From contig CAVVOG010000001.1 of the NCBI GenBank assembly GCA_963749895.1, positions 18,068-82,067 on the forward strand: DNA of 64,000 bases, given 5' to 3'. Every line of letters begins with the position of its first letter. The first letter of the stretch is position 1. A program made the translations under genes and the position numbers. The stretch comes from an uncultured Actinomycetes bacterium. Its GTDB lineage: Bacteria > Actinomycetota > UBA4738 > HRBIN12. The notes beneath the pieces were generated by a model, which searched no databases, was not told where the DNA came from, and saw nothing but the letters and a program-made list of their open reading frames with translations. Shown here one piece after another: positions 10,561 through 38,736 of the stretch.

Positions 10561-10610
10561 CCATCGACGGTACCGCGACCCCGCACGGTCGGCATGGGAC
10601 CATCCCACGC

Positions 10611-11832: not shown

Positions 11833-12468
11833 ATGTCGAAGGTGTTGCTCGACCATGTGCCGGCCCGCACGCCGAGGGAGTACGCCCCCGTTCCGCCCCC
11901 GCGTCGGACGCCCGGTCGCTCGAAGATCGAGGCGGGCGTCCTCGGTCTGATCCTGGTGGCGATCTTGGTGTTCACGGCCGGGTTCGCGATGCTGTTCCCC
12001 GACGGCAGGGTCTCGTCCGACGCGTGGACGACGTACCGCGACCCGGGCGGGACGTTCGAGCTGCGGCTCCCGGCCGGGTGGGTGATCGCGCCGCAGGCTA
12101 CGGGCGTGCGGCTGGCGGGCGACGCGATGACCGTGGAGGTCACGGTCCTCGCCGACGAGACCACCAGCGTCGATCAGCTCGCGGGGCTGCGGGCGGGCGA
12201 GCTCGCGGACCTGGGCGCGGCTGAGGTCACGAGCGTGGAAGGCACGACGATCGCAGGTCGTCAGGCGGCGGCGGTCGAGGAGCTGTCCACCGGCGACGGC
12301 CGGGTGACCCGGCGGCTGTACGTCCAGGCCGGGGAGCGCACGGTCGTGACGATCGTGGCCACGGCGGACGAGGGCGCCTTCGATCGTGCGACGGTCGACG
12401 CGATCGTCGCGACGCTCGCGTTCCCCACGGATGTCGAGCCGGGTCTGGTCGATCAGTCGCGGCCGTAG
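11833..12468 (+). CDS. membrane-anchored hypothetical protein (N-in, single TM, extracytoplasmic domain)
   Basis: RBS GGGAGGTG; TM segment GVLGLILVAILVFTAGFAMLF. Confidence 0.5.
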   Translation: MSKVLLDHVPARTPREYAPVPPPRRTPGRSKIEAGVLGLILVAILVFTAGFAMLFPDGRVSSDAWTTYRDPGGTFELRLPAGWVIAPQATGVRLAGDAMTVEVTVLADETTSVDQLAGLRAGELADLGAAEVTSVEGTTIAGRQAAAVEELSTGDGRVTRRLYVQAGERTVVTIVATADEGAFDRATVDAIVATLAFPTDVEPGLVDQSRP

Positions 12469-13727: not shown

Positions 13728-13812
13728 CTGCGGCGGGACCCCCCGACGGTTCGCGCCGTCGGCGCGAACCCCCTAGGCTGGGGCCTGTCCGAACGTCGAG
13801 GTGGGAGGATCG

Positions 13813-18121: not shown

Positions 18122-19369
18122 TCACGCGCCGCGCAGATCGGACACGATCGCGTCGGCCGCGCGCCGGCCGCCGAACAGCGCGCCCTGGATCGAGGCGGTG
18201 TCGCGGTGATCGCCCAGCACGTACCGCCCGGAGCCCAGGCGGACGCGACGACGCGGGGCGAACCCGGGGCGCTGGTCGGGGTGCCCGTGGGCGATCACGT
18301 ACGTCGCGACCTCGTCCCACGCGTCGGCGTCGGGGAACCATCCGCGCAGTTGCGTGCGGACCGCCTTCACCAGGTCGGGGGCCAGCGCCGCAGGCCCCGG
18401 AACCGCGGCGGCGACGAGGGCCTTCCCGCGGGGGGCGTAGGGAGGGGCGACCTCGCTCATCACCGCGAGGTTCTTCACGGGGCCCGAGCCCTCGCCGTCC
18501 AGGGCGAGCACCGGCCCCTCGAGCGGTGCGGCGGGCGCGGCGAGGTACACGCACGCGACCGGGCGCGAACCCGGGTCGGCGACGACGCCCGGCAGCAGGC
18601 GGGCCGCCTCCGGCCCCTCGGCCGCGACGGCCACCACCGGCGCGCGGAGCTCCTCGCCGTCCGCGAGCACGACCCCGCGGTCGGTCAGGCGCTCCACCCT
18701 CGCGCCGAGTCGGATCGTCCCGTCGGGGAGTCCCGCCGCGAGCTGTGCCGGGATCCGACCCATCCCGCCTGCGGGGACGGCCGCGTCGCCGGTCGCGAGC
18801 ATCCGCAGGATGATCCGGAACCGCTTGGCGGAGACCTCCAGGTCGGGATCGAGCTGGATCCCGGCGAACAGCGGCCCCAGGAGCCGCTCGACGGCCGCCT
18901 CGGACAGGCCCTCCTCGCGGAGCGCCTGTCGGGTCGTCTCGTCGGGACCCCGGAGTAGATCGGCGGCCCTCCCACGGGTCACCCGCCCGATCAGCCGCAG
19001 CAGCCTCGCCTTGTCGAGCGGGGAGCCGACCGGCGCGAACGTGGTCGACAGCGCCGCCCCCGGCTCGCGACGAGGATCGCCGACCCGGCGCCAGCGTCCG
19101 CCGACCCGCACGCGCGCGCCGGGGGCGAACGTCCGTAGGTCGAGCGCATCGAGGTCGAGCTGGACCTGGGCCTCCGGGTAGGCGGTCAGCAGGATCTGGA
19201 ACCCGCGGTCGAGCAGGAACCCGTCCACCTCGTCCGTGCGGACCCGGCCGCCGACGCCATCGCCGGCTTCCAAGACCGAGACCTCGAGCCCCGCGGCGTG
19301 CAGCCGACGGGCGCACGCGAGGCCCGCGAGGCCCGCACCCACGACGATCGCGTCCGCCATCCGGCTCAT
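18122..19369 (-). CDS. NAD(P)/FAD-binding oxidoreductase (amine-oxidase/phytoene-desaturase-like flavoprotein)
   Basis: DAIVVGAGLAGLACARRL...GGRV motif after the ATG at 19369; the 210 upstream codons of ORF 18122..19999 are discarded as GC run-on. Confidence 0.75.
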   Translation of the reverse strand: MSRMADAIVVGAGLAGLACARRLHAAGLEVSVLEAGDGVGGRVRTDEVDGFLLDRGFQILLTAYPEAQVQLDLDALDLRTFAPGARVRVGGRWRRVGDPRREPGAALSTTFAPVGSPLDKARLLRLIGRVTRGRAADLLRGPDETTRQALREEGLSEAAVERLLGPLFAGIQLDPDLEVSAKRFRIILRMLATGDAAVPAGGMGRIPAQLAAGLPDGTIRLGARVERLTDRGVVLADGEELRAPVVAVAAEGPEAARLLPGVVADPGSRPVACVYLAAPAAPLEGPVLALDGEGSGPVKNLAVMSEVAPPYAPRGKALVAAAVPGPAALAPDLVKAVRTQLRGWFPDADAWDEVATYVIAHGHPDQRPGFAPRRRVRLGSGRYVLGDHRDTASIQGALFGGRRAADAIVSDLRGA

Positions 19370-19389: not shown

Positions 19390-20601
19390 TCAGCCCGGGA
19401 GGAACCGCTGCACCGCGTGGCCGGCGACCACCTGCCCGATCGCGAGGCAGGCCGTGGCCGCGGGCGACGGCGCGTTGCGGACGTGGATCACCCCGGGGCC
19501 GGCCTGCAGGACGAAGTCGTCGACGAGTCCGCCGGCCCGGTCGAGCAACTGTGCCCGGATACCCGCGGGCGCCGGCTCCAGGTCCCGGGGTTCGATGCCG
19601 GGGAGCATCCGCGAGATCGCCTCGGCCGTCGCGGGACGCCACAGATCGCGCAGGTACTCCCCGGCGGCCACGCCCGGGTGCCGCGCGGCGAGCCGCCAGA
19701 GCCCCGGGAACCCCACGGCGTCCCACGCGTCGCGCGGGTCCACGGCCCAGCGCCCGTAGCGCTCCCGAGCGAACGCGAGCACGGCGTTGGGCCCCGCCCA
19801 GACCTCGTCGTCGATGCGGCGGGTCAGGTGCACCCCCAGGAACGGCAGCCCCGGTGCGGGCACCGGGTAGACGAGGCCGCGGACCCGCTCGGCCGCTCCG
19901 GGGCGGAGCCGCAGGTACGCGCCGCGGAACGGCACGACCCGGCGGTCGTCGCGGACCCCGGTCATCGCGGCGACCCGATCCGAACGCAGCCCCGCGCACG
20001 CGACCACCCCGCGCGCGAGGATCTCGTCGCCCGATCGCGTCCTCACGATCCGACGAGGGCCGGAGGGCTCGACGGCGACGACCTCGGATCCGGTCCGCAC
20101 CGCTCCTGCGGCGGCCGCGATGTCGTCCGCGAGCGCCTCGGCCACGGCCCGGAAGTCGACCACGCCCGTCTCGGGAACGTGGAGGGCGCGGACCCCGGTG
20201 ACCTCGGGCTCGACCTCACGCAGCCCGGCGGCGTCGAGGAGCCGCAGACCCTCGAGCCCGTTCGCGTCGCCGCGCGCCCTCAGATCGTCGAGCCGGGCGG
20301 CCTCGGCGTCGTCCAGCGCCACGACGAGCTTGCCGGTGCGTCGCACCGCGATCCCGCGCTCCGTCGCGTAGGACTCGAGCTCGGTCCGGCCCCGACGGCA
20401 GAGCCGAGCCCGCCACGACCCCGGCTCGTAGTAGAGCCCGGAGTGCAAGACCCCGGAGTTGCGGCCGCTCTGGTGGGCGGCGACCCCGTCCTCGCGTTCG
20501 AGGACGACGACCCGGGTCCCCGGGCGCGCCTCGAGCAACCGGACGGCGGTGGCGAGCCCGACGAGGCCCCCACCGATCACGACGACGTCCGCGCGCTCCA
20601 C
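19390..20601 (-). CDS. lhgO: L-2-hydroxyglutarate oxidase/dehydrogenase-like FAD flavoprotein
   Basis: DVVVIGGGLVGLATA and HQSGRNSGVLHSGLYYEPGS signature. The GTG start lies 12 nt after the Rrf2 stop with GGAGG between, so the two are translationally coupled. Confidence 0.8.
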   Translation of the reverse strand: MERADVVVIGGGLVGLATAVRLLEARPGTRVVVLEREDGVAAHQSGRNSGVLHSGLYYEPGSWRARLCRRGRTELESYATERGIAVRRTGKLVVALDDAEAARLDDLRARGDANGLEGLRLLDAAGLREVEPEVTGVRALHVPETGVVDFRAVAEALADDIAAAAGAVRTGSEVVAVEPSGPRRIVRTRSGDEILARGVVACAGLRSDRVAAMTGVRDDRRVVPFRGAYLRLRPGAAERVRGLVYPVPAPGLPFLGVHLTRRIDDEVWAGPNAVLAFARERYGRWAVDPRDAWDAVGFPGLWRLAARHPGVAAGEYLRDLWRPATAEAISRMLPGIEPRDLEPAPAGIRAQLLDRAGGLVDDFVLQAGPGVIHVRNAPSPAATACLAIGQVVAGHAVQRFLPG

Positions 20602-20613: not shown

Positions 20614-21039
20614 TCAGACCGGGGTGTCGGCGCGGTTGGCGGCCACCTCGGCGAGCGTCGTCTCCCCGACCGTCGCCTGGATCTGAGGCCGGATCTCGCG
20701 CCAACGGAAGTGGAGCTCGCAGGGGTTCTCGGAGGAACACTCCTCGCGCCAGAACAGGCAGCGTCCCTCGAACACGTCGGGCCCCTCGACCGCCAGGAGG
20801 ACTTCGCCGATCGTGATCTCCTCCGGGGGACGCGCCAGCAGGTACCCGCGCCCCCGGCGAGACTCCAGGACCCCGCCCTCGGCGAGCATCCGCATGATCT
20901 TGTGCAGGTACGCGAGCGGCAGGTCCGCCGCTTCCCCGATCTCGCGAGCGTCCACGAAGTCGCCGGCAGGTCGGTCGGCCAGCACCAGCAGGGCCTCGAT
21001 CGCGTAGCGGCTCTCGCGCGCTAGCCGCATCTCCTCCAC
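20614..21039 (-). CDS. Rrf2-family transcriptional regulator with a three-Cys Fe-S cluster motif (IscR/NsrR type)
   Basis: N-terminal wHTH MRLARESRYAIEALLVLA; Cys motif C-x6-C-x5-C (CLFWREECSSENPC). Confidence 0.85.
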   Translation of the reverse strand: MEEMRLARESRYAIEALLVLADRPAGDFVDAREIGEAADLPLAYLHKIMRMLAEGGVLESRRGRGYLLARPPEEITIGEVLLAVEGPDVFEGRCLFWREECSSENPCELHFRWREIRPQIQATVGETTLAEVAANRADTPV

Positions 21040-21067
21040 CTCCCGGCGCCACCGCGCCCGTCCGTGA

Positions 21068-21925
21068 TCACAGGTCCCGCCTCGGCAACGCCCACCGGGC
21101 GAGCACCAGCGGTCCGACCGTCCATGCCGCCAACGACCCCGCCAGCACGCCCACCGAGCCCACGGTCCCGAACGTCGAGACCAGGTAGGCCCCGAACGGC
21201 CCGAGCGCCGTCCCGCGGAAGTTCGTGCCCAGCAACGCGAGGATACGTCCGGCCTCCAGGGGGTTCAGGACGATCGCGGCCAGCAACCCCTGGGGCCCGA
21301 GGTGGACCGACGGGGCGAGCGCCGCCAGCGCGAGGTCCACGCCCAGCGAGAACACGATCCACAGGCCGACACCGCCGGCCACCGCCTGCGCCCGGTTCGA
21401 CGCGAACGACGACAACGCCACCCCGATCGCGACGCTCGACGCGGCGACCCCCAGGGTCGCCCCGATCAGGGTCACCAAGGCGGGGACGTCGCTGCCGCGC
21501 GCCACGCTCGACATCACGAGCAGCGCGACCCCGTAGCCGACCCCGAGGGTGACCCACATCGACCCGGTGAGCCCGAGGAACGCACCGGCCACGATCGACG
21601 AGCGCCGCATCGGCTGGGCGGCCATCATCGCCAGGAGCCCCTGTTCGCGGGCCCCGACGATCGCGCCGGAGCCCAGCAGCAGCCCCATCAGCGACGGCAG
21701 CAGGATCCCGAGGTTCACGAGCGTCGCCGAGGCGGGGCCGATCCCCGACAGCCCCAGCTCGCGGACCGTGCGGAACCCCAGGAGCGTCACGGTCAGGCAC
21801 AGCACGCCGAAGATCGCCGCCATCACCAGCACCCAGCGGGCACGCACGCTGGTGCGGAACTCCCATCCCGCGATCGTGCGGGCCGGCGAACGTCGCCGCG
21901 GCACCGGGGTCGTGACCGCGCTCAT
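21068..21925 (-). CDS. nosY: ABC-2 type permease, NosY-like
   Basis: 6-TM permease whose ATG overlaps the nosF stop (ATGA). Assigned by its position in the nosDFY triad. Confidence 0.75.
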   Translation of the reverse strand: MSAVTTPVPRRRSPARTIAGWEFRTSVRARWVLVMAAIFGVLCLTVTLLGFRTVRELGLSGIGPASATLVNLGILLPSLMGLLLGSGAIVGAREQGLLAMMAAQPMRRSSIVAGAFLGLTGSMWVTLGVGYGVALLVMSSVARGSDVPALVTLIGATLGVAASSVAIGVALSSFASNRAQAVAGGVGLWIVFSLGVDLALAALAPSVHLGPQGLLAAIVLNPLEAGRILALLGTNFRGTALGPFGAYLVSTFGTVGSVGVLAGSLAAWTVGPLVLARWALPRRDL

Positions 21926-22626
21926 CCCGCCGCCTCCAGCCCCTCGTCCTCAGCCGGCTTCGGCCCATCGAACGGGGTCCCGGTGAAGTCCTCGTCGAGC
22001 GCCAGGCGGCCGTCCTCCACCGTGATGCCGCGGTCGGCGACCCGCCGGAGCTCCGAGGGGGCCGGTGAGCTCACGATCGCGGTGACCCCTCGCTCGTCGC
22101 GCAGGCGGCGCAGGACGCCCCAGAACACCTCGCGGCCCTCCTCGTCCAGGTTCGCGACCGGCTCGTCCAGCAGGAGCAGGGTCGGATCTCCGAGCAGCGC
22201 GATCGCGAGCGCGACCCGGTGACGCTGGCCACCCGAGAGCGTGCCGATCCGCGCGTCGTCGTCACGGACGAAGCCCTCGGGGAGCGGCACGGTGGCCCGG
22301 TCGGCGCCGCGGAGATCGGCGAACAGGTCGAGCATCTCGCCGACCGTGGCGTGCTCGGGCATCCCGACGGTCTGCGGCAGGTAGCCGATCCGCTCCCGAT
22401 GCGCCGGCGTGGCGTCGAGCTCGGCGCCGTCGAGACGGATCACGCCCTCGTGGCGGACGAGCCCGGCCACGCACTTCAGGAAGGTGCTCTTGCCGCTGCC
22501 GTTCGGCCCGCCGAGCGCGACGATCCTGCCCGCGGGCACGTCGAGGTCGACGCCGTGCAGCCCGAAGCCGCCCGGGTACACCTTGCGGAGCGCCTCGACG
22601 CGCAGACGTGACGTGCGCTCGCTCAT
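21922..22626 (-). CDS. nosF: ABC transporter ATP-binding protein, NosF-like
   Basis: Walker A GPNGSGKST, signature LSGGQRHRVAL, Walker B LLLLDEP. The ATG at 22626 overlaps the nosD stop (ATGA). Confidence 0.85.
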   Translation of the reverse strand: MSERTSRLRVEALRKVYPGGFGLHGVDLDVPAGRIVALGGPNGSGKSTFLKCVAGLVRHEGVIRLDGAELDATPAHRERIGYLPQTVGMPEHATVGEMLDLFADLRGADRATVPLPEGFVRDDDARIGTLSGGQRHRVALAIALLGDPTLLLLDEPVANLDEEGREVFWGVLRRLRDERGVTAIVSSPAPSELRRVADRGITVEDGRLALDEDFTGTPFDGPKPAEDEGLEAAG

Positions 22627-24122
22627 GCCGCCACCACCCTGCGGGGTCGCCGGCGCGCACGGACCAGGAGCCAGCCGCAGCCGAGGGTGAGCGCGAGCCC
22701 GGGGATCCACAGCGGTGCCCGCGGCCCGATCCGCTCGGCGGCCAGTGGCGGCGACGACAGCTCGGTCAGCGGTGCGTCGTCGAGCACGAGCGGCTCGGCC
22801 GGCGCCCACCGCTCCTCGACCGCCGACAGCAGCCGGAACGCCGGTCCGGAGGCGAGCGCGAGCAGGACGGGATCCTCCGCGATCAGCTGGCTCGTCCGGC
22901 CGCTCCGCGAGTACGCGAGGTCACCGGTGCCGTCGCCTCCGGCGTCGAAGCCGCCGTAGTCGCTCCAGTAGTTGCCCACGCCGTCGACGGTCCAGACCGC
23001 CTGCGTGCGCCCCGTCCCCCCGAGGGCCACCTGCGTCGTGTTCTCCACGAAGCCGTTGTCCGTGAACCACGCGTCGGCCGACGGGAACAGCAGGACGCCG
23101 ATCTGGTTCACCGCCACGGTGTTCCGAACCAGTCGGGCCGGCTCACCCCCCGTGCGGCCCGCGTCGTCGATGTGCACCGCGACGCGGTTGTCGGCGATCA
23201 CGTTGTCGCGCAGCAGCACGCCGCCGGCGTCCTTCACCAGGACGCCGAACCCGGTCGACGGGCTGCCGTTCTCGGTGATCGTGTTGCCCTCGACCGCGAC
23301 GGGCCCCCCGTACATCAGGACGATGCCGGAGAGGTTCCCGCTCAGGTCGTTGCCGCGGAACGCCACGTCGGCCGCGTACATGTCGTGGAGGCCGTAGCGG
23401 CTGTCCGACACGCGGACGCCCTCGATGACGCAGCCGGTCCCGTACGTCAGCTGGACGCCGTCGCGGACCGTCTCGATCACGCTGTCGCGCACGATCGTCC
23501 GTTCGCTGTCGAACAGCCAGATCCCGTCGCCGCGGAGCTTCGTAGGTTCGGCCTCGCCGCCGGCGTCGGTCGCGACGTCGCTCACCGCGTGGAGCTCTCC
23601 GGAGATGATCCCGCTGCCGCGGACCGTCACGCGCTCGATCACGACGTCACGGGCGCGCTGCACGGTGATGCCCATGTAGGAGTCCTGGACCTCCAGGTCG
23701 TGAAGGTACGCCCGGTGTCCCCCGCGCTTCACCAAGATCCCGGACGGCGCGCCCACCGGGAAGCGCTCGCTCCCGCGAACGAGGATGCCCGACACCTCGA
23801 CGTCGGGGGCCGCGACCGTGAGCACCGAACCCTCGCCCTGCCCGTCGAGCACGACGCCGGGCGCACCGACCAGCGTGATCGGCGCGTCGATCGTGAAGTT
23901 GCCGGTGTGGGTGCCGGCCGGAACGGTGACGGTCGACCCCGGCACCGCCGCGTCCAGCATCGCCTGCAGGTCACCCGTGGCGCCGGCGGGGGCCACGGGG
24001 AGCACCGTCGCCCCTGCGAGGGCGAGGCCCCCGAGCAGGAGGCGGACGGCGACGCGGACGCCCGCCACGGCGCTACCCCGTGACCGACGCGGGTTCGTCG
24101 GCCGGCGACGCGGCCTCGTCAC
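22623..24122 (-). CDS. nosD: periplasmic copper-binding protein NosD (right-handed parallel beta-helix repeats)
   Basis: Signal peptide followed by repeated beta-helix units (TVRGSG.., NVIADNRVAVHI.., FVENTT..). The exact start is uncertain (24122, or an internal Val near 24068). Confidence 0.85.
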   Translation of the reverse strand: MTRPRRRPTNPRRSRGSAVAGVRVAVRLLLGGLALAGATVLPVAPAGATGDLQAMLDAAVPGSTVTVPAGTHTGNFTIDAPITLVGAPGVVLDGQGEGSVLTVAAPDVEVSGILVRGSERFPVGAPSGILVKRGGHRAYLHDLEVQDSYMGITVQRARDVVIERVTVRGSGIISGELHAVSDVATDAGGEAEPTKLRGDGIWLFDSERTIVRDSVIETVRDGVQLTYGTGCVIEGVRVSDSRYGLHDMYAADVAFRGNDLSGNLSGIVLMYGGPVAVEGNTITENGSPSTGFGVLVKDAGGVLLRDNVIADNRVAVHIDDAGRTGGEPARLVRNTVAVNQIGVLLFPSADAWFTDNGFVENTTQVALGGTGRTQAVWTVDGVGNYWSDYGGFDAGGDGTGDLAYSRSGRTSQLIAEDPVLLALASGPAFRLLSAVEERWAPAEPLVLDDAPLTELSSPPLAAERIGPRAPLWIPGLALTLGCGWLLVRARRRPRRVVAA

Positions 24123-24738
24123 CGTCCTCGTCGGACCGTCCGGCCGTCACGAACTCCTTGACGAAGCCCCAGTACATCGGGCCGAGCGTGACGAGCGCCG
24201 CGGCGCCGAACAGGCACCACAGCGCCTCGCCCGGCCACGCGATCGTCTTCACGTTGCTCGCGACCGCGACCTTCCCGATCACCCAGGGGGTGAACGGCTC
24301 GACGTCGATCGGGGCGGCAGGATCGATCGTGTGACCCATCTGGTACAGGCGGTACTGGATGTCGATCAGCACCCCGATCGGGATCAGCCAGAGCAGGACG
24401 ATCGCGCCGCGTCGCCACCATCCCGAGAGGACGGTGGCCACCGCGATCAGCGCGATCGCGGCGACGAGCGCCGGGTTCCACAACACCGTCTCCGCCAACT
24501 CGCCCATGTCGAAGACCTTCACCCCGACGTAGTGGTTCAAGATCGCGATCTCGTCGACGTCGCCCTCGATCCGATCGCCGTAGGCGGTCAGGACCAGCTG
24601 GCGGTTCGGGTACTGCAGGACCTCGAGCCGGGCCTGCCAGACGGGCAAGCCGAAGGCCAGGACGACGAGGACGACGGCCACCGCGCCGAAGACGACCCGG
24701 ACGAGCCGGTCCCCTCGAGCGCTCCGGTCAGCCGTCAT
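24073..24738 (-). CDS. polytopic membrane protein of unknown function inside the nos cluster (possible NosB-like)
   Basis: 5-6 predicted helices, no signal or lipobox; located between the cupredoxin gene and nosD. Confidence 0.55.
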   Translation of the reverse strand: MTADRSARGDRLVRVVFGAVAVVLVVLAFGLPVWQARLEVLQYPNRQLVLTAYGDRIEGDVDEIAILNHYVGVKVFDMGELAETVLWNPALVAAIALIAVATVLSGWWRRGAIVLLWLIPIGVLIDIQYRLYQMGHTIDPAAPIDVEPFTPWVIGKVAVASNVKTIAWPGEALWCLFGAAALVTLGPMYWGFVKEFVTAGRSDEDGDEAASPADEPASVTG

Positions 24739-24767
24739 CCTCGATCGTCCCTCCGAACGTCAGGACC

Positions 24768-25238
24768 TCATCCCACCGTGAGCGTGCCGACCATCGTGGC
24801 CGGGTGGGCGAAGCAGTTGAAGGTGTAGGTGCCCGCGGGGAGCGCCGGGATCTCGTACACGACCTCGGCGACGCCGTTGATCAACTCGTTGTTCGCGGGC
24901 GCGAACACCGGGGTCACGGTCGTGTCGGTGCCCTCGAAGATCTGAACGTTGTGCGGGATGCCCGTGTCGTCGTTCTTGAACAGGATCGTGAACGGGGTGT
25001 CGGCGGGCGCGGACAGCTCCGTCTCGGCGAACCCGGTGTTCGAGGACCCGACCGGCGCGGTGATCGTGAGTTCGGTCGACGGCGCCGTCGTCTCGGTCTC
25101 GGTCGCGGCCGACGACGAAGTGGACGTCGCCGCGCTGGAGGTCGTGGTCGTCTCGTCGGCCGGGCTGTCGCCGCCCGAGCAGGCCGACAGGACGAGCCCG
25201 GCGACCACCGCGACCGCGGCGATCCGGATGAACCTCAT
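24768..25238 (-). CDS. cupredoxin (plastocyanin/azurin-type blue copper) lipoprotein
   Basis: RBS AAAGGAG; lipobox LSAC; type-1 copper ligands His (PHNVQIF) and C-x2-H-x3-M (FNCFAHPATM). Confidence 0.8.
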   Translation of the reverse strand: MRFIRIAAVAVVAGLVLSACSGGDSPADETTTTSSAATSTSSSAATETETTAPSTELTITAPVGSSNTGFAETELSAPADTPFTILFKNDDTGIPHNVQIFEGTDTTVTPVFAPANNELINGVAEVVYEIPALPAGTYTFNCFAHPATMVGTLTVG

Positions 25239-25341
25239 GCGTGCTCCTTTCGATGCGGATCCCTCGTGAGCTGCGTGGAACGCGAGGGGGGCGCCGGGTG
25301 GCGCCCCCACCATGGTAGGGGCGCCACCCGGCTTGGGGGGG

Positions 25342-27318
25342 TTAGGGCGCCACCTCGATCCAGCCCTGCATCTCGAGGTGGAGGGCGGAGCAGAACTCCG
25401 TGCAGTACATCGCGAAGGTCCCCGGCCGGTTGAGCGGCAGGTCGACGTTCACGACCTCGCCCGCGTCGATCGAGACCTCGATGTTGTGCTGAGGGATCGC
25501 GAACCCGTGGGTCGCGTCGGGCGTCTGCTCCACGTTCGTCAGGTGCAGCCGGAGGGTGTCGCCGACCTTCGCCTGGATCGTGTCCGGCGTGAAGTGGCTC
25601 CGCAGCACCGACATGTAGACGTGGACGTCCTTGCCGTCGCGCTCGATCTTCTCCTGCCCGGCTTCGATCGCGAACTCGGACCTCGCCCAGGTGGCGGGGT
25701 CCGTCCCCGGGTCGTACACCTGGATCGTGTGGACGAGCTTGTCCGCCTTGATCATCTGGACGTAGTGCGGCTCGCCCATGCCGATCGGCGCGTCGTACAG
25801 CACCTCCATCTGGTCGCCGGTCAGGTCGACCAGCTGGAAGTTCTGCGGGTGCAACGTGCCGAGCGGCGGGAAGCGGTCGATCGACCACTTGTTGAGCGCC
25901 ACGAGGTAGGTCCCGTCGGGGTTCACCGTGTCGCCCTCGGCGGTCACCAGGTGCCCGATGTTGTACTGGACCGGCAGCTTCTCCACGAGCTGGAACGCAT
26001 CCCCGTCGTGCCCGGCCTTCGGCCCGAGGGACCACTTCGCGACGGCCGTGTCGATGAACAGCGACGTGTAGGCGTAGCCCTTGTCGTCGAACTGCGTGTG
26101 GAGCGGCCCCGCACCCAGCTCGACCTGCGCGATCATCACGTCCTCGAGCTTGAGGATCGGCACGCCGTACTCGTCTTCGCCCTCGTAGGTGCCGGCGTCG
26201 ATCGCGGCCTTGATCTTCTCGAACTCGTAGACGCTGCCGTTCGGATCGAGCTTGCCGCCGATGCAGATGTAGTCGCCGGTCGGATTCACGTCGACGCCGT
26301 GCGGGCTCTTCGGCTCTGGCGCGAGCGTCAGGACCTTCTCGGCTGCAGCCACGTCGAGCGGGATCACGTTCATCCCGTTGATCTCGACCGTCTCGCCGGC
26401 CTTGAAGAGCTCCTCGGCCTTCTGCCAGTCGATGATGTGGAGGTAGTCGTAGTCGTTCGCGGAGGCGCCGGCCTCGAGCGGCTGACCACCCTGCGAGGTC
26501 CCGACCGCCATCTCCGAGTTGTACGAGTTGATGAATCCGTAGCCGAAGCTGGTCAGCTTGCCGGCGTCGGCGAGGTCCTGCGTGTACGGGGGAAGTTCGA
26601 TCTGGAAGGTGCTCGCCTTGTCGAACCTGCCGGTCTCCTGGTCGATCGCGATCCACGTCGAGAACCCGCGGAACTCCTCCTTGAACCTCGACAGGGGCGC
26701 GTAGCCGTTCACGGGGGTCGGCGTCATCGTCGAGATGTGCACGTACTCCGAGTTGGGCGTCACGAAGCACCCGCCGTGCGAGGTCTGGAGGTTGGGGATG
26801 TCCCAGATCTCCTTGGTCTTGAAGTCGCGGAGATCGATCATCGCGATCCGGCCGTTCGCGCGGTCGTTGATGTAGAGCCAGCGACCGTCGTAGTCGCCCT
26901 CGGTCTCGGACAGCGCCGGGTGGTGCGTGTCACCCCAGTACACCGGGTTGCTCTTGTCGGGGTCGATCCCACCCTCGAGCACGAGGTTCCCCTGATCGCT
27001 GCCGTAGCCGTACCCCTGCCACGCATCGGGTGTGAAGACGGGGATCACCTTGAGGACGCGCATCGAGGGCACACCCATCACGATCATCTGCCCGGAGTGC
27101 CCGCCGGACGCGAACATGAAGTACGGGTCGTACTCGCCGGGTGGGACGAACGTCTTCTGCGCGGCGCTCGACTGGTCACCCGTCAGCCCCTGCCCGGAGT
27201 CGCCGTCGTCCCCGCCGGACGAGGAGAACCCGACCCTCGCCCCGGCTGCCCCGACCACGACGCCGCCCGCGAGCATGCCCAGCGCCGCTCGGCGAGAGAC
27301 CTGCGGTCCACCTGCCAT
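25342..27318 (-). CDS. nosZ: nitrous-oxide reductase NosZ (Tat-dependent)
   Basis: Twin-arginine signal SRRAALGMLAGG and a beta-propeller body. C-terminal CuA site HGF...YCTEFCSALHLEM. RBS GAAGGAGGAG lies before the ATG at 27318; an alternative upstream ATG exists at 27354. Confidence 0.95.
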   Translation of the reverse strand: MAGGPQVSRRAALGMLAGGVVVGAAGARVGFSSSGGDDGDSGQGLTGDQSSAAQKTFVPPGEYDPYFMFASGGHSGQMIVMGVPSMRVLKVIPVFTPDAWQGYGYGSDQGNLVLEGGIDPDKSNPVYWGDTHHPALSETEGDYDGRWLYINDRANGRIAMIDLRDFKTKEIWDIPNLQTSHGGCFVTPNSEYVHISTMTPTPVNGYAPLSRFKEEFRGFSTWIAIDQETGRFDKASTFQIELPPYTQDLADAGKLTSFGYGFINSYNSEMAVGTSQGGQPLEAGASANDYDYLHIIDWQKAEELFKAGETVEINGMNVIPLDVAAAEKVLTLAPEPKSPHGVDVNPTGDYICIGGKLDPNGSVYEFEKIKAAIDAGTYEGEDEYGVPILKLEDVMIAQVELGAGPLHTQFDDKGYAYTSLFIDTAVAKWSLGPKAGHDGDAFQLVEKLPVQYNIGHLVTAEGDTVNPDGTYLVALNKWSIDRFPPLGTLHPQNFQLVDLTGDQMEVLYDAPIGMGEPHYVQMIKADKLVHTIQVYDPGTDPATWARSEFAIEAGQEKIERDGKDVHVYMSVLRSHFTPDTIQAKVGDTLRLHLTNVEQTPDATHGFAIPQHNIEVSIDAGEVVNVDLPLNRPGTFAMYCTEFCSALHLEMQGWIEVAP

Positions 27319-27336
27319 GGTGCTCCTCCTTCTCTC

Positions 27337-27353
27337 TGGACCTTTCTGGTCCA
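27337..27353. promoter_or_regulatory. perfect palindrome TGGACC-N5-GGTCCA, 19 nt upstream of the nosZ start; candidate operator
   Basis: Read directly from the sequence. It is part of a GGACC/GGTCC-rich array spanning 27337-27485. Confidence 0.4.
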
Positions 27354-27400
27354 TTGCCCCGTCACCGTGGCACCGATCGAACGTCGGAGGGAAGCGCGAA

Positions 27401-27430
27401 GGTCCCGGGTTCGAGAGGACCTTTGGACCA
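27401..27430. promoter_or_regulatory. GGTCC-N11-GGACC inverted repeat overlapping a GGACCtttGGACCA direct repeat in the nosZ/MBL divergent intergenic region
   Basis: Read directly from the sequence (coordinates +/-1). Confidence 0.35.
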
Positions 27431-27488
27431 TCTTCGTCCAGAGGTACCTCACGGCGATCGCTCGGACCGGCGCTGTTAGGGTCCCGCC

Positions 27489-28352
27489 ATGACGATCGCG
27501 ACGATCACCGTCGGCCACGTCGAGGTGACCGCACTGCTCGACGGGATCTCCGAGGACATCCCGATCCTGGAGGCCTTCCCCGACGCCCCGCCCGACGCGC
27601 TCCTCGCTGCGCGCGACCGGTTCCCGGACGTCTACGGCCCGGACGACACGTGGCGCCTGACCGTGCGCGCATGGCTCGTGCGGCACCCGGAGGGCGAGCT
27701 CCTGATGGACACGGGGGTCGGCTCGACCGCGGCGATGTCGTGGTTCCCGGAACCCGGTCGCCTCCACGAAGCCCTGGCAGAGGCCGGCACCGCCGCCCAC
27801 CTCGTGAACACCGTCGTCGTGTCCCACATCCACGACGACCACGTGGGGGGCACGGTCACCACCGAGGGCGAGCTTGCGTTCCCGAACGCCCGGTTCGTGA
27901 TCCAACGAGCCGACCTGGACGCCGCCCGCACGAGCGCGACGGCCGCCGATGCCGACGAGGAGGACGTCGCGGTCTGGGACACGCTCCTCGCCCCCCTGGA
28001 GGCCGCCGGGCTCTTCGACGTGGTGGAGGGTGACCACGCCCTCACCGGGTCCCTCCGACTCCACCACGCGCCCGGCCACACGCCCGGCCACCAGGTCCTG
28101 CGCATCACGTCGAAGGGCTCGCGGGCGCTGCTCTCGGCGGACACCTGGAACCACCCGGCACAGCTCGCCCACCCGGACTGGTCCTCGGCGCCCGATGGAG
28201 CGCCCGGCAGGGCGGCCGCGACCCGCCGATCGATGCTCGCGGGACTCCTGTCCCATCCCGGCACGATCGTGGCCACGACGCACTTCGCCGAGGCGTTCGG
28301 GCACGTGGTGAGCGGACGCGACGGTCTCGCGACCTGGGAGCCGGTGGCGTAG
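27489..28352 (+). CDS. MBL-fold metallo-hydrolase (lactonase-like)
   Basis: HxHxDH motif SHIHDDHVGG and C-terminal His ligands (HHAPGHTPGH). Confidence 0.8.
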   Translation: MTIATITVGHVEVTALLDGISEDIPILEAFPDAPPDALLAARDRFPDVYGPDDTWRLTVRAWLVRHPEGELLMDTGVGSTAAMSWFPEPGRLHEALAEAGTAAHLVNTVVVSHIHDDHVGGTVTTEGELAFPNARFVIQRADLDAARTSATAADADEEDVAVWDTLLAPLEAAGLFDVVEGDHALTGSLRLHHAPGHTPGHQVLRITSKGSRALLSADTWNHPAQLAHPDWSSAPDGAPGRAAATRRSMLAGLLSHPGTIVATTHFAEAFGHVVSGRDGLATWEPVA

Positions 28353-29653: not shown

Positions 29654-32203
29654 CTACGGGCACGTATCGAACGTGTTGGTGCCGCCGCCCCCACGACAGA
29701 CGTCTCTCCCGGCCCCGCCGCTGAGGTGATCGTTCCCCGGCCCGCCCTCCAGACGGTCGCGCCGGTCGCCACCGGAAAGGAAGTCGCCCCCGGCCCGGCC
29801 GATCAGCACGTCGCGGCCGCCGAAACCGTAGAGGGAGTTCGGACCGGCGTCGCCGCGGAGACGGTCGTCGCCCAGGAGGGTGCCGTACACGTGGTCGATC
29901 CGCCGGTACCGGTCCGTACCCACGATCGGTCCCCACCCGCGGCCCTTCGCCAGGTTGACCTCGACCCGCTTGCGTGTGCACCGGTTCCCCACGCAGCTGA
30001 AGTAGCTCACGGTGTCGCGTCCGGAGACCCCGTCGATGAGATCGTCGCCGCCGAGACCGGTGAGCACGTTGTCACCGTCGTCGCCCCGCAGGACGTCGTC
30101 GCCAGAGCCGCCGAAAGCACCCTCGAGCCCCCGCAGCGTCGATCGGTCCTGTCCGACGAACGCCCGCTCGGTCCCGAGGTCGACCTCGACCGGTCGACCG
30201 AGGTTCGAGTAGGACACGTAGTCGTAGCCGCCGCCGCCAAGGACGAGGTCCTCGCCGCCGCTCGGATAGATCACGTCGTCTCCGCCGCGTGCACACAGCA
30301 CGTCCGTCAGCGGTGTCCCGACCAGCTGATCGTTGCCCGACGTGCCGTCGTGCGTGCACGTCGTGGCGTCGAGCCCCTCGATCGTCACCGATGCCGCATC
30401 GTCGGTGGGGTCGGGGTCGTCGGCGCTCGTGACGGCCGCCTCGAGCACGACCGGGCCCGTGCGACGGAGCTCGACGTCGATCGAGAGCCGAGCGACTTCC
30501 CCACGGGAGAGCGCCCCGACGGGGCAGTCGATCCGCCCCGAGGATCGGACGCAGAGACCGGGCGCCTTCACCACCGTCGCGCCCGACCCGGTGTCGAGGG
30601 ACAGCACCACGCCGTCCGGGCCGGTCGGCCCGTTCGCCACCGCGACGAGATCGACGTCCACCGCGCGTCCCTTCAGCGCTCGAGGGGGGACCCGAGTGAT
30701 CGCGACGGCGACGTCGGCGCCCGATGACGGCGGCGGCACCACGCGGGCCCACGTCGTCCGCCACCGGTCACCGTCCACGCTCGGGGTCGCCGCCGACGTC
30801 TGTACCGTCCACAGGCTGCCGTCTGACGGGTCGGCCACCGTGGCGCTCGTGTCACCCCAGCGGTTCGTGCCGTCGACGTCCGGGACCGCGTACGGAGCCT
30901 CACCGGGCGCGAAGACGACCTCGCCGCCGAGCGTCCCGATCGCGTCGGCGACGGTGCGGAGCCGGTACGCACCGCTCGCGTACCTGCTCTCGGAGAACCT
31001 CGTGTATCCGAGGAGGAGGTCGCCGGCAGGGTTGACGGCGAGCGACGGGAACGCCGACACGACCCCCAAGCGGCCCTGCTGGAGCACGGTTCCCTCGGGG
31101 AGGAACTGCCACCACTGCACGGAGGCGCGCGTGGGCTCCGACGCCGGCAGGAAGACCGTGTGAGCGCACCAGATCGTGCCGTTGCGCATCGTGCACGTCT
31201 GGAGGCGGGTGTCACCGGTATCGATCGCGACCGCCGAGCCACGCTGCGGTGCGTCGACCGCGGTCGTCGACCACCTCGACCCGACGACCGCGGCGGCTCG
31301 TGAGATGTACTCGGGCTCCGCCGTGGTGCCCGAGAGCGCCCCGATCGTGAGCGCGCGACCGTTGCCGTCGTCGCTCGCGATCAGTTGTGCCCCGACGAAC
31401 GCGTCCATCGTCGTGACCGGCGCCAGGCCCCGGCGTCCTCCGTCCACCACGCGCGCCAGCGTCATCGCGGGATCGTCGTCCTCCGCCTCGGTGCGGTCGA
31501 ACCCGAGCAGCAGCGACCCGGCGGCCCGTCCGTCGGCGATCACGTCTCGGTCGGTCGCCACCGAGATCCAATCCGCGGAGAACCCCACACGCGTCGAGCG
31601 CACCTCGCGATCGCCGCCCGCGGCGGCGTCGACCCGGACCATCCACCAGCCACCGGTCGGGTCGGAGGTCTTCGAGACCGCGAGCACGACGCCGGCCTCC
31701 CTGCGACCGGGATCCACGCAGGCGGCCATCACGAAGCGTTTGCCGAACGGCTCCCAGACGACGACCGGGTCGACGACGTCGACGATCGACGGGTCGAATG
31801 CGCGCCACCAACCCAGCAACGAGGACGCGGCGAGCACCCCGCCGTCCTTCGAGGAGACCCGTACCCCGTCCGCGACGACCTGCACGAGGTGCGAGGTCCC
31901 CACGGCGCCGTGGGTGTCGGGGGGCGACACCGTCGCGTCTCCCTCGATCCCGGGGATCGTCGCCGCCGGATCGGGTGAGGCGGCGAGGATCGTCCGTTCC
32001 CCACGGCGTAGGTCGGTCGACGGGATCGCCTCCGCCGCGATCAGTCGCTCGCCGTCCACGATCACCTGCGACCTGTCGGGTCCCGCGCTCCGACCGAGCA
32101 GCGAGGGCGGCGGGACCGAGACGGCGCCGGCGACGGTCGGCGCGACGGTCGACGACACCGCGAGCGCGGCGATCACGACGGCGAGGGCGCGGGTCCGGAG
32201 CAT
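29654..32203 (-). CDS. large secreted protein with C-terminal RTX (hemolysin-type Ca-binding GGxGxD) repeats
   Basis: Sec signal MLRTRALAVVIAALAVSSTVAPTVAGA; about 500 aa of unknown domain, then tandem nonapeptide repeats (GGSGDDVLRGDDGDNVLTGLGGDDLIDG...). Confidence 0.8.
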   Translation of the reverse strand: MLRTRALAVVIAALAVSSTVAPTVAGAVSVPPPSLLGRSAGPDRSQVIVDGERLIAAEAIPSTDLRRGERTILAASPDPAATIPGIEGDATVSPPDTHGAVGTSHLVQVVADGVRVSSKDGGVLAASSLLGWWRAFDPSIVDVVDPVVVWEPFGKRFVMAACVDPGRREAGVVLAVSKTSDPTGGWWMVRVDAAAGGDREVRSTRVGFSADWISVATDRDVIADGRAAGSLLLGFDRTEAEDDDPAMTLARVVDGGRRGLAPVTTMDAFVGAQLIASDDGNGRALTIGALSGTTAEPEYISRAAAVVGSRWSTTAVDAPQRGSAVAIDTGDTRLQTCTMRNGTIWCAHTVFLPASEPTRASVQWWQFLPEGTVLQQGRLGVVSAFPSLAVNPAGDLLLGYTRFSESRYASGAYRLRTVADAIGTLGGEVVFAPGEAPYAVPDVDGTNRWGDTSATVADPSDGSLWTVQTSAATPSVDGDRWRTTWARVVPPPSSGADVAVAITRVPPRALKGRAVDVDLVAVANGPTGPDGVVLSLDTGSGATVVKAPGLCVRSSGRIDCPVGALSRGEVARLSIDVELRRTGPVVLEAAVTSADDPDPTDDAASVTIEGLDATTCTHDGTSGNDQLVGTPLTDVLCARGGDDVIYPSGGEDLVLGGGGYDYVSYSNLGRPVEVDLGTERAFVGQDRSTLRGLEGAFGGSGDDVLRGDDGDNVLTGLGGDDLIDGVSGRDTVSYFSCVGNRCTRKRVEVNLAKGRGWGPIVGTDRYRRIDHVYGTLLGDDRLRGDAGPNSLYGFGGRDVLIGRAGGDFLSGGDRRDRLEGGPGNDHLSGGAGRDVCRGGGGTNTFDTCP

Positions 32204-33710: not shown

Positions 33711-36700
33711 TCAACCCGCGAGCGTCCGGAGCTGCCGCAGGGCGACCGTCAGCTGCGAGCCGTCGGTGACGCCCTCGACCGCCAAGGAGCGCATGAAGCG
33801 CCGCACGCGTTCCGCGGCCTCCGCGCGTGCCTCCAGGAACGTGTCGACGGCGTCGTCGATCGATCCACCGGAAGCCCCGTCGAGCACGCGTTCGCACAGG
33901 CGGCGGCGCAGAGCGAGGAGATCGTCCTCGGTCGACTGCAGCGCCCACCGCTGCCAGCGCGTGGTCGTGGGCAGCGACGCCAGCTGGGTCTCGAGCCAGT
34001 CGATCTCGAGCCGCTCCCCGAGCACGAAGAAGCCGCGGGCCACCTCCAGCGGCGACCATCCCGTCGCATGCGCCACGGCGATGATGTCGGGGGCGTGCAC
34101 GAGCTCAGGCTGGAAGGCGTGTCGGCGTGCCACGACCTCGGGGGCGCCGGCCGCGATCAGCCGTTGCGCTTCCTGCTCGTGCTCCTCTCGCCAGGCCTCC
34201 GGGCCGATCTGGTGGATCGCGGCCGACAGCTCGGCGAACGAGTCCCGAGCCTCTCCCACCGCCTCCGACAGCCGCCGCCCCGCCGCCTGCACGAGGTACC
34301 AACGGGAGGTCGTCTCGACGAGCCAGTCGACCCCGGTCATCAGCTCGGCCTGCACGATCGGGTCGATCTGACCGTCGAGGGCCTCCACGTCGGCCCAGCG
34401 TGCGACGGCCCCGGTCACGTCGCGCGCGATCCGGAACGCCCGGACCACATCGGCGGCATGCGCGCCGGTCTCGGTGACCATCCGGGAGACGAACGTGATC
34501 CCTTGCGAGTTGACGACGTCGTTCGCCGCCATCGTGGCGATGATCTCGCGGCGGAGCGGGTGTTCCGTGAGCAGATCGCCGAACCGCTCCACGATCGCCG
34601 AGGGGAAGTAGCGTTGAAGATCCACGGCCAGGTAGTCGCTGTCGGGGAGGTCGCTGGCGAGCAGCGCCGAGTACACGGAGCGCTTCGCGTAGGCGAGCAG
34701 GACCGACATCTCGGGGCGGGTGAGCCCCATCCCGGCCGCCCGCCGTTCCAGCACCTCTTCGCTCGTGGGCAGGAACTCGACCTCACGCTCGAGCTCTCCC
34801 TCGGCCTCGAGCTGCTGCATCAACTCCTCGTAGGCCTCGATCCGGGCCGGTGCGACCTGCTCCTCCTGGGACAGGATCTGCGCCTGGAGATAGTTGTCGT
34901 ACAACACGTGCTGGACCACATCGGGGGCGCATGCCTCCAGCAGCTCGTTGCGCCCCTCGACCGTCAGCTGGCCGCGGGCGATCGCGAGCCCCAGCAGGAT
35001 CTTCCAGTTGACCTCGTGGTCCGACGTGTCGACGCCCGCGGAGTTGTCGATGAAGTCGGTGTTGATCCGGCCCCCGGCGAGCGCGTACTCGATCCGACCG
35101 CGCTGGGTGAAGCCGAGGTTGCCGCCCTCGCCTACGACGCGGGCTCGGACGTCCCGCCCGTTCACCCGCACGGCGTCGTTGCCTCGGTCTCCCGCGTCGG
35201 CGTGGGTCTCCCGGGCGGACTTCACGTAGGTGCCGATCCCGCCGTTCCACAGTAGATCGACCGGCGCCTGCAAGATCCAACGGATCAGTTCGTCCGGGGT
35301 CATCTCCGCGGGCGCGTCGTCGGGGATCGAGAGGGCGGCGCGCACCTGCGGCGACGGAGCCACGCTCTTGGCCCTGCGGTCCACGACGTCCCCGCCGACG
35401 GACAAGAGCGAGCGGTCGTAGTCGTTCCACGACGAACCGGGCTGCTCGAACAGCCGCTGTCGCTCGACGAAGGACACCTTGGGGTCGATCGGCTCGGGAT
35501 CGAGGAACACGTGACGGTGATCGAACGCGGCGACGAGCCGGATCATCTCCGTGTAGAGCATGCCGTTGCCGAACACGTCGCCCGACATGTCGCCGACCCC
35601 GACCACGGTGAACGGATCTCGGCGCACGTCGATCCCCGGTTCGCGGAAGTGGCGCTTCACCGACTCCCACGCCCCGCGTGCCGTGATCCCCAGCGCCTTG
35701 TGGTCGTAGCCCGCTGAGCCCCCGCTCGCGAACGCGTCACCGAGCCAAAAGCCGTAGCGACCCGCCTGCTCGTTCGCGATGTCGGAGAAGGTCGCGGTTC
35801 CCTTGTCGGCCGCGACGACGAGGTACGCGTCCGGCGCGTCGAGCACACGGACCCCCTCCGGATGCACGATCTCGCCGTTCACCAGGTTGTCCGTGATGTC
35901 GAGCAGCCCGTGCATGAAGGTCACGTACTGCGTGACCACCTCCTGCCTGAGCTCCTCCGGCGTGGCGGGCGTGCGCTTCAGGACGAACCCGCCCTTCGAG
36001 CCGTCCGGCACGATGACCGCGTTCTTCACCTTCTGCGCCTTCATCAGGCCGAGCACCTCGGTGCGGTAGTCCTCCTTGCGGTCGGACCATCGGATCCCGC
36101 CGCGGGCGACCATCCCGCCGCGCAGATGGATCGCTTCCATCGTCGGCGAGTACACGAAGATCTCGAACAACGGATGCGGCTTGGGCATCTCCGGCACGTC
36201 GGCCGAGCGGAGCTTGAACGACAGGAACGAGCGGTCGGGCAGGTAGGCGTTGGTACGGACCGTGCTCTCGATCGTCCCCAGGAGCGACCGGATGATCTGA
36301 TCTTGGTCCAACGATGCGACCGACCCGAGATCGGCGAGGATCTGGGTTCGGATCGCCGTCGCCTCCTCGTCGCCCCCGGCGCGCGTGGGGTCGAACCGCG
36401 CCTCGAACAGCGCGACGAGTCGCGCCGCGATGTGCGGGTTCTCGGCCATCGCGTCGTTGCGGTAGTCCTCGGTGAACCGGCTCGACACGCGCATCCGGTA
36501 CTTGCGGTACGCGCGCAGGATCTGGACCTGTCGCCAGTCGAGGCCCGCGAACGTCACGAGGCGGTTCAGCGAGTCCACCTCGGCGGAGCCCCGCCACATC
36601 GCCCCGATCGCATCGACGACCCGCACGGAATCGGTCTCGAGGTTCAGGACGGCCCCGCGCCCGTCCAGCACGCCGAAGTCGTGGATGTACACCCGCCCGG

Positions 36701-38552: not shown

Positions 38553-38736
38553 GGTTCAGGCCTCGTCGGTCGGTGCCGTCGGGAAGGGTTCGGAGGGCCC
38601 ATTGTGGCAGGTCAGGCGAACGACCGTTCGAGACGTTGTCCGTCCCGAACGATGGAGGCCGACGCGCCCTGGCGACATCGATACGCCACCACCTACCTTG
38701 TCGAGTTGGAGGGGTCTACACAAGGGGGTGAACCCC

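Follow-up and report, generated by a model that had tools for sequence, protein, structure and literature searches.

To our knowledge, nitrous oxide reductase (NosZ) provides the sole biological sink known for the greenhouse gas N2O, and the carriers of a working NosZ determine whether a soil emits or consumes it. In soil, the Actinomycetota rank among the most abundant bacteria. Of those with denitrification genes, a published survey classed 98% as "initiators" and only 1% as "terminators" (PMC12569097). The Campylobacterota (Wolinella-type) nos cluster has the order nosZ-B-D-G-C1-C2-H-F-Y-L (Hein et al. 2017, as cited in PMC11409646 and PMC9697520). A clade II subgroup that combines a twin-arginine translocation (Tat) signal with nosB has been documented in Chloroflexota (PMC11409646), so that this combination is in itself already known. 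Here, we describe a nos cluster in 64 kb of DNA from an uncultured Actinomycetes bacterium (contig CAVVOG010000001.1; the whole stretch is called the window, and positions are counted from its first letter). With a probability of roughly three in four, we read it as the Actinomycetota version of the clade II nos cluster, a self-contained module of nosZ, a cupredoxin gene, nosB, nosD, nosF, nosY, and rrf2. What is unusual is the lack of nosL and of cytochromes, the cupredoxin gene in the nosL slot, and the phylum. In the literature searched, with subscription papers outside reach, nothing was found that describes such a layout for an actinobacterial nos cluster, and the NosL-free, cytochrome-free, cupredoxin-bearing arrangement appears to be undescribed there.

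Gene order and its conservation

The cluster consists of seven consecutive genes, all on the minus strand between 20614 and 27318. Because the window has a G+C content of about 72%, raw lists of open reading frames (ORFs) are crowded with shadow frames, and genuine genes were picked by codon-position G+C (GC3) together with Pfam and NCBIfam searches. By these measures all seven genes are present and intact, in line with an earlier note on this DNA that had described a compact nos cluster, with all genes on one strand, in an apparently actinobacterial genome. The same note had the genes separated by tiny or negative spacers. This holds for cupredoxin-nosB (29 nucleotides), nosB-nosD (4), nosD/nosF and nosF/nosY (-4 each), and nosY-rrf2 (37) but not for the 103 nucleotides between nosZ and the cupredoxin gene. 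Reading of the junctions bore out the claim that nosD, nosF, and nosY are coupled by ATGA overlaps. The interval up to 27488, at which the earlier note had ended the cluster, is the remaining intergenic region before a divergent gene for a metallo-beta-lactamase (MBL)-fold protein.

The order nosZ-cupredoxin-nosB-nosD-nosF-nosY recurs in at least 15 other actinobacterial genomes. These are represented by 12 Actinomycetota loci of a species-representative genome collection, with rrf2 after nosY in 9 of them, and by three more contigs with independent gene calls, one being a contig of 2.65 Mb and another an Acidimicrobiia locus with a fused NosB-NosD. The full seven-gene layout is found in 11 of 15 actinobacterial loci, and nosF orthologues occupy the same position in all loci compared. 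When the flanking ORFs of the 12 loci and the window were compared all against all, only the seven cluster genes were shared, and it is these that define the module. All seven are under purifying selection, with a ratio of nonsynonymous to synonymous substitution rates (dN/dS) of 0.07 to 0.31 relative to the nearest relative (L001, 93% NosZ identity); the value for nosZ is 0.07. The layout is kept across the 15 other genomes while NosZ identity falls from 93% to 62%, and NosZ homologues are present in many metagenomes. NosB, NosD, NosF, and NosY all find their closest relatives in those Chloroflexota and Actinomycetota clusters that also hold the closest relatives of NosZ, which argues that the cluster evolved as a unit.

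The cupredoxin and the missing accessory genes

The second gene (24768-25238, minus strand) encodes a cupredoxin lipoprotein of 156 amino acids, in which a signal peptide with lipobox is followed by a tether rich in Thr and Ser and by a plastocyanin-like domain of the type-1 copper kind. The domain scores above the cut-offs of both Pfam Cupredoxin_1 (PF13473, 34.8 bits) and Copper-bind (PF00127, 24.8 bits), and its His-Cys-His-Met ligands align in plastocyanin register. The lipobox, LSAC (MRFIRIAAVAVVAGLVLSAC), marks the predicted product as a lipoprotein, and a Cys-containing lipobox is conserved, together with the ligands, in the orthologues with a complete N terminus. Among solved structures, plastocyanins (1e-5) and auracyanin B (1e-2) match best, at about 25 to 30% identity to any of them. 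The small copper protein is thus predicted to be a lipid-anchored type-1 cupredoxin.

Searches with Pfam of essentially every plausible ORF of the 64-kb window returned no member of the NosR, NosL, ApbE, Nir, Nor, or cytochrome c families, and no CXXCH motif occurs in those ORFs of the window that have a coding-type codon composition (GC3 filter). A NosL hidden Markov model (HMM) built from nine sequences of the PF05573 family, which gave 7.6e-67, 5e-22, and 5e-8 for its positive controls, gave no hit with an E value under 0.097 when run over the six frames of the window and of the stretches covered for the 15 actinobacterial loci. Hence, the reported lack of nosR, nosL, nosX/apbE, and c-type cytochrome genes stands for the whole window, as does the description of the cupredoxin lipoprotein as the sole visible electron carrier. 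The missing nosR and nosX had also been taken as a sign of a mixed architecture. This does not follow, since their absence is the rule for clade II. The absence of nosL, of cytochromes, and of a quinol-oxidizing module makes the cluster minimal, and throughout the actinobacterial lineage, as represented by the window and the 15 related loci, neither nosL nor a cytochrome c gene is present in or around it.

The most serious competing explanation, which we nevertheless consider unlikely, is that the cupredoxin is not, or not only, an electron donor and has replaced NosL as the protein that delivers copper to NosD and NosZ. It is suggested by the position of the gene. In the Chloroflexota sister loci a NosL gene lies between nosZ and nosB wherever this interval is covered (all by tblastn, two confirmed by Pfam), and in the window and all 15 actinobacterial loci, where NosL went undetected, exactly this slot is filled by the cupredoxin. 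Moreover, the sister clusters have a cupredoxin or cytochrome c of their own upstream of nosZ besides nosL, and the cupredoxin is a lipoprotein, as is NosL. The intact type-1 site speaks against such a role: the full His-Cys-His-Met set is strictly conserved, and a site of this kind holds copper tightly, which is typical of electron transfer and not of Cu(I) hand-over. It also counts against copper delivery that cupredoxins are established NosZ donors in other organisms and that plentiful copper largely makes up for a loss of NosL, whose absence may therefore need no replacement. Furthermore, NosL is reported as a dedicated chaperone for the assembly of CuZ (PMC6530538). On balance, we favor the electron donor function for the cupredoxin of this module.

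A cluster without NosL and without an electron-input module (NosGH, cytochromes b or c, Rieske) could be seen as a decaying or nonrespiratory remnant that no longer supports N2O reduction, the more so as frameshifts seem to affect ilvC and the leuB region elsewhere in the window. We consider this very unlikely. All metal ligands are intact and every gene is full length, the dN/dS values given above are low for all seven genes, and the layout has been maintained in 15 other genomes over a wide range of NosZ identity. In addition, the cluster of Thermomicrobium roseum is likewise free of cytochromes.

Antisense to the cupredoxin gene, the plus-strand ORF 24946-25269 has a high GC3, but its third-codon positions coincide with those of the minus-strand gene, and it was rejected as a shadow ORF, whose faint resemblance to NosL by tblastn (E = 0.56) was regarded as noise.

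NosZ, NosB, and the assembly genes

The nosZ gene (25342-27318, minus strand) starts with an ATG behind AGGAGG, and its product of 658 amino acids is identical to a database protein of that length (P0001). The clade II model TIGR04246, with a cut-off of 625, gives this product 770.3 bits, and the clade I model TIGR04244 gives it 415.7 bits, below a cut-off that is likewise 625; on the clade III lactonase-type model NF052460 it reaches only 195 bits against a cut-off of 700. Identity is 48 to 55% to clade II references (Campylobacter, a deltaproteobacterium, and Thermomicrobium) and 32 to 37% to proteobacterial and haloarchaeal clade I references. In a bootstrapped distance tree (neighbor joining; 32 sequences, 654 columns) the split between clades I and II has 100% support, and the NosZ of the window falls inside clade II, in an actinobacterial subclade (90%) beside Acidimicrobiia-type sequences and then those of Chloroflexota (99%). 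Every solved NosZ structure that it matches either is one of the familiar clade I enzymes or gives a score similar to theirs, about 330 bits. The CuZ histidines (H132, H133, H181, H340, H407, H456, and H518) and the CuA ligands (H604, C639, C643, H647, and M650) all lie in columns that are invariant across the 32 sequences. Thus, by its sequence, NosZ is a clade II enzyme with a complete set of copper ligands. The earlier note had called it clade-I-like and had quoted its CuA site in this connection. That site is indeed intact, but the motif does not discriminate between the clades since its ligand columns are invariant in both, and the suggested placement against clade I, clade II, and haloarchaeal sequences puts the enzyme in clade II, apart from the haloarchaeal ones. 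There is no evidence of a recent horizontal transfer of nosZ, which was considered and rejected: the G+C content dips to 0.68 over the gene but is equally low elsewhere in the window.

Of the traits associated with clade I, the Tat motif alone was found, nosR and apbE being absent from the window and the clade I model missed. The twin-arginine motif SRRAALG, already pointed out in the earlier note, is present at the N terminus, and most of the closest homologues (those above about 66% identity) retain VSRRAALGM. The h-region is weakly hydrophobic (hydropathy, 1.61) and the c-region contains an Arg, consistent with a Tat substrate; the Sec-type signal that is usual in clade II was not found. 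The Chloroflexota relatives carry a TRRELI motif in NosZ. NosZ proteins of the kind found in the window bear the NCBI product name "Sec-dependent", which is merely the name of the model, in spite of their Tat motif, and clade surveys that use the signal peptide or accessory genes could misfile them for this reason. The NosZ of T. roseum (L032, 8794-10821, on a megaplasmid) is annotated in the same way and yet combines a twin-arginine motif, VSRRGLLG, with a lipobox, LLASC, behind it. Such a lipoprotein would be exported by Tat, and the organism would offer a culturable model for a Tat-type clade II NosZ. A related actinobacterial contig has a TatA/B/E-family gene of 56 codons (L039, 8550-8720) in divergent orientation to a Tat-type nosZ, about 280 nucleotides upstream of it; in the 64-kb window itself, tatA homologues were not found. 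That the cluster is a mosaic, in which a clade-I-like Tat NosZ lost nosR, nosL, and nosX and gained clade II or archaeal parts, in the sense of the mixed architecture of the earlier note, is scarcely credible, since the Tat signal, a textbook clade I trait, occurs throughout this part of clade II in Chloroflexota and Thermomicrobium (PMC11409646), and the gene set, equal to that of the haloarchaeal clade I cluster, goes with a NosZ that scores 416 bits (cut-off, 625) on the clade I and 770 on the clade II model, is separated from clade I including haloarchaea with 100% bootstrap support, and has its closest relatives in the same clusters as NosB, NosD, NosF, and NosY.

The membrane protein encoded at 24073-24738 (minus strand; 221 amino acids) had been left unassigned, with the remark that it sits where clade II clusters carry nosB. 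No Pfam or NCBIfam family could be assigned to it, but BLASTP and published motifs identify it as NosB itself, the hallmark of clade II. It matches the gene at the nosB position in Campylobacter (8e-11), a deltaproteobacterium (2e-21), Thermomicrobium (8e-12), and Haloferax (2e-17), the Campylobacter match, to the gene after nosZ in a locus with the Wolinella gene order (L024), being 27% identical over 164 amino acids. The NosB signatures of van Spanning (2011), in the form in which PMC9697520 quotes them, are LNHYIGM and YGHN; the protein of the window has LNHYVGV at residues 67-73 and MGHTIDP at residues 134-140. N68, H69, Y70, and H136 hardly vary among 22 homologues, and G135 and P140 do not vary at all. 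An AlphaFold2 model (pLDDT, 83) shows four long helices, in agreement with hydropathy, and two beta hairpin regions, so that the protein is a predicted tetraspan with an extracytoplasmic beta-sheet; the positive-inside rule would place this sheet, together with the two conserved histidines, on the outer side. Structure searches returned generic tetraspan matches only.

The gene lies directly upstream of nosD, with the cupredoxin gene between it and nosZ, and in many organisms the association with nosD is closer still. A profile search retrieved 1192 representatives of the NosB family, and among the 148 best of these, 39 exceed 600 amino acids (32 of 600 to 800 amino acids and 7 longer). All six long proteins sampled with Pfam (P0156, P0157, P0165, P0257, P0260, and P0285) are NosB-NosD or NosB-NosD-NosF fusions, the former of about 650 to 750 and the latter of about 890 to 1150 amino acids, and single fused NosB-NosD ORFs were also read in L013 (12429-14471), L019 (12249-14477), and L038 (11459-13522). 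A NosB-NosL fusion is already known, and a copper role for NosB has been proposed (PMC9697520). Since many relatives have NosB joined to NosD, or to NosD and NosF, in one polypeptide, NosB is probably a membrane subunit of the NosDFY machine that assembles the copper center. The fusions thus point to a function for NosB that can be put to the test.

That machine is represented in the window by three genes on the minus strand. The nosD gene (22623-24068) encodes a beta-helix maturation protein (Pfam NosD, PF05048, 114 bits) from a GTG at 24068, 4 nucleotides past the nosB stop, with an alternative GTG at 24122. The nosF gene (21922-22626), whose ATG overlaps the nosD stop, encodes an ATP-binding cassette (ABC) ATPase (ABC_tran, PF00005, 101 bits), and nosY (21068-21925), whose ATG overlaps the nosF stop, an ABC-2 permease according to both hydropathy and ABC2_membrane_2 (PF12679, 72 bits). 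With a beta-helix NosD, an ABC ATPase, and an ABC-2 permease encoded together, NosDFY is the ABC-type assembly machine for the CuZ center.

At its C terminus (22623-22720) NosD has a hydrophobic membrane helix followed by RARRRPRR, besides an N-terminal signal or anchor. On account of this C-terminal helix, the protein is predicted to be anchored at both ends and not to be soluble in a periplasm. Such double anchoring fits both a cell lacking an outer membrane and the topology required by the NosD-NosF and NosB-NosD fusions.

Regulation, surroundings, and relation to described nos loci

The last gene of the cluster, rrf2 (20614-21030, minus strand), starts with the ATG at 21030 behind GGAGGTGGAGGAG and encodes an Rrf2-family regulator of 138 amino acids (Pfam Rrf2, PF02082, 105 bits; TIGR00738, 93 bits). 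It scores far below the cut-offs of all named subfamilies (IscR, NsrR, RirA, and CymR), with, for instance, 63 against 207 bits for IscR and 29 against 182 for NsrR. The three cysteines of iron-sulfur (Fe-S) regulators of the IscR, NsrR, or RirA type are present as C91-x6-C98-x5-C104, followed by His106, and none of the three varies among the actinobacterial orthologues that were aligned. The protein is, therefore, probably an Fe-S-cluster sensor. At 27338-27352, 20 to 34 nucleotides upstream of the nosZ start, lies a perfect palindrome, GGACCAGAAAGGTCC (strand not assigned), the sole exact GGACC-N5-GGTCC in the window. A copy with one mismatch lies at 27425-27439 (strand likewise not assigned), in the same intergenic region between nosZ and the divergent MBL-fold gene. 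One-mismatch matches as such are not enriched, 20 being observed in the window and 11.4 expected. Ten actinobacterial loci, with upstream regions that otherwise share only 47% identity, have the core CAAnGGA[C/G]-N7-GTCC[G/A]TT unchanged and in the same relative position. From this co-occurrence, the palindrome upstream of nosZ is possibly an operator for the Rrf2 protein of the cluster.

Thirteen nucleotides after the nosZ stop, within the 103-nucleotide spacer, lies a perfect, GC-rich 18-bp hairpin without a U-tract (25293-25332, minus strand). The 84-nucleotide segment around it folds at -50.7 kcal/mol (z = -5.5), which no shuffled sequence equals, and the hairpin is common only to the nearest relative, L001. 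It is possibly an attenuator or a transcript stabilizer and may set the ratio of nosZ to accessory-gene transcript. A sigma-70 scan revealed no promoter-like site, and no terminator-like site was seen on the minus strand, as might be expected at 72% G+C.

Together, these features suggest how the module could work. Tat would carry NosZ to the outer surface of the cytoplasmic membrane, in a cell without a classical periplasm, and NosDFY and NosB would load it there with copper and sulfide; without NosL, the copper for NosD would come from some other source. The membrane-tethered cupredoxin would pass electrons to CuA, in the role taken elsewhere by cytochrome c, pseudoazurin, auracyanin, or halocyanin. 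It would itself be reduced by a quinol oxidase encoded elsewhere, for which the actinobacterial bcc complex is, as a conjecture, the most likely candidate. The Fe-S Rrf2 protein would probably repress the operon at the GGAC-N7-GTCC palindrome until a redox or nitric oxide (NO) signal inactivates it. The full set of these claims can be put forward only tentatively, and we would rather expect some part of it to need revision. It states that the Actinomycetota have their own minimal N2O-respiration module without c-type cytochromes, NosL, or a dedicated quinol oxidase, with the lipid-anchored cupredoxin in the nosL slot as donor and possibly copper source, NosB as an integral subunit of NosDFY, and an Fe-S Rrf2 repressor acting at GGAC-N7-GTCC.

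Several points weigh against reading the locus as a self-contained clade II module. Since the analysis of this genome covered the window alone, nosL, other copper chaperones, nir, nor, and a quinol oxidase may lie elsewhere in the genome. The clade placement rests on a distance tree with few reference sequences, and NosD scores 281 bits on TIGR04247, narrowly under the cut-off of 300. The nearest Acidimicrobiia relatives have Sec-like N termini on NosZ in an otherwise identical cluster, so that the Tat signal is not essential to the layout. The role of NosB in Wolinella has been discussed as electron transport besides copper handling, and for this reason the fusions leave an electron-transfer role possible. 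The palindrome could belong to another transcription factor. More generally, activity, export route, electron partner, and regulator target are all deduced from sequence. A nos module that is conserved and selectively maintained in uncultured Actinomycetota indicates that part of the phylum may consume N2O with a stripped-down apparatus that dispenses with cytochromes and NosL. If the proposal is true and the module is active in soil, members of an abundant soil phylum that has been counted almost wholly as N2O producers would be an overlooked N2O sink. It would also provide a direct handle on the function of NosB.

The genes on either side of the cluster were left out of the module. Downstream, an L-2-hydroxyglutarate oxidase gene (19390-20601, minus strand; NF008726, 474 bits) may be cotranscribed with the nos genes, as it starts 12 nucleotides after the rrf2 stop behind its own GGAGG; it was rejected as a member because this flavin adenine dinucleotide (FAD)-dependent oxidase is common only to the nearest relative. 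On the other side, the divergent MBL-fold gene (27489-28352, plus strand) encodes a lactonase-like protein that matches the AidB family at 92 bits, far below its cut-off. It is found beside nosZ in three other actinobacterial loci (L001, L006, and L007), with a weak match of 30% identity near nosZ in the Chloroflexota locus L009, and was left out since it scores below all cut-offs and occurs in only these three other actinobacterial loci.

The window is also dense in genes for FAD-dependent oxidoreductases (1235-4009, 10518-11753, 12453-13772, 18122-19360, and 19390-20601), four of the DAO family, one of them fused to a GcvT-type aminomethyltransferase, and one amine-oxidase/HpnE-like. Two kilobases from the nos cluster and without an evident link to it, a gene on the minus strand (29654-32203) codes for a large protein of secreted type that has a DUF11 domain and, at the C terminus, RTX calcium-binding repeats. 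The rest of the window is mostly devoted to amino acid metabolism, with ilv and leu genes and an NAD-glutamate dehydrogenase of 1614 amino acids (33711-38555). In the ilvC ORF (52781-53749) the first 63 or so positions of the KARI_N domain are missing, and homologues cover only 84% of the ORF; in the ORF 48584-50845 a C-terminal isopropylmalate/isocitrate dehydrogenase fragment is joined to a LeuA-like synthase. Both look frameshifted, through assembly indel errors or as pseudogenes. In loci from related long-read metagenome-assembled genomes (L001, L025, and L026) nos genes are split too.

Among described systems, the Tat-type clade II clusters of Chloroflexota (class OLB14, for instance, PMC11409646; Dehalococcoidia, Anaerolineae, and Tepidiformales, L009-L023) resemble the locus most in having a clade II, twin-arginine NosZ of 57 to 63% identity, the order nosB-nosD-nosF-nosY, frequently followed by an Rrf2 gene, and a cupredoxin gene within the cluster. 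They differ in having nosL (PF05573) between nosZ and nosB, where the window has the cupredoxin gene and no nosL, in placing a cupredoxin or cytochrome c gene upstream of nosZ, and in the fusion of NosB and NosD in both loci that were read for ORFs (L013 and L019). The T. roseum megaplasmid, with nosZ, nosB, a nosD gene of 783 codons that probably includes NosF, nosY, and nosL, carries a similarly minimal, cytochrome-free clade II cluster, and its NosZ, 55% identical, has a Tat motif. In contrast to the window, nosL is present, cupredoxin and Rrf2 genes are lacking, and NosZ itself is the predicted lipoprotein.

Campylobacterota NosZ is exported by Sec. In the Campylobacterota locus L024, NosB follows nosZ, and NosD, NosF, and NosY are homologous to those of the window. 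Between nosD and nosF, however, L024 has two genes for monoheme cytochromes c and a ferredoxin-like Cys-rich gene, which correspond to the NosGH/C1/C2 quinol-oxidizing module, and NosL is also present, none of which has a counterpart in the window.

The cupredoxin shares the fold and the His-Cys-His-Met site of auracyanin, halocyanin, pseudoazurin, and plastocyanin, and with auracyanin and halocyanin also the lipid anchor and flexible linker; pseudoazurin is an electron donor to NosZ. In gene content, the locus is reminiscent of haloarchaeal nos loci, as the earlier note had observed. Those of Haloferax larsenii (pHl5678-2) and a Natronorubrum aibiense plasmid combine a Tat NosZ, a plastocyanin-family cupredoxin of the halocyanin type, and nosDFY with a NosB homologue directly after nosZ (2e-17), without nosR or cytochromes. 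The order on the Haloferax plasmid is pcy-nosZ-nosB-nosD-nosF-nosY, and no nosL was found at that locus, as in the window; Natronorubrum has nosZ-nosB-nosDFYL and a plastocyanin-family protein and thus retains nosL. The likeness does not extend to phylogeny: haloarchaeal NosZ belongs to clade I, is 35 to 37% identical to the enzyme of the window, and lies on the opposite side of the tree, while the cupredoxin gene is upstream or divergent and an Rrf2 gene is lacking.

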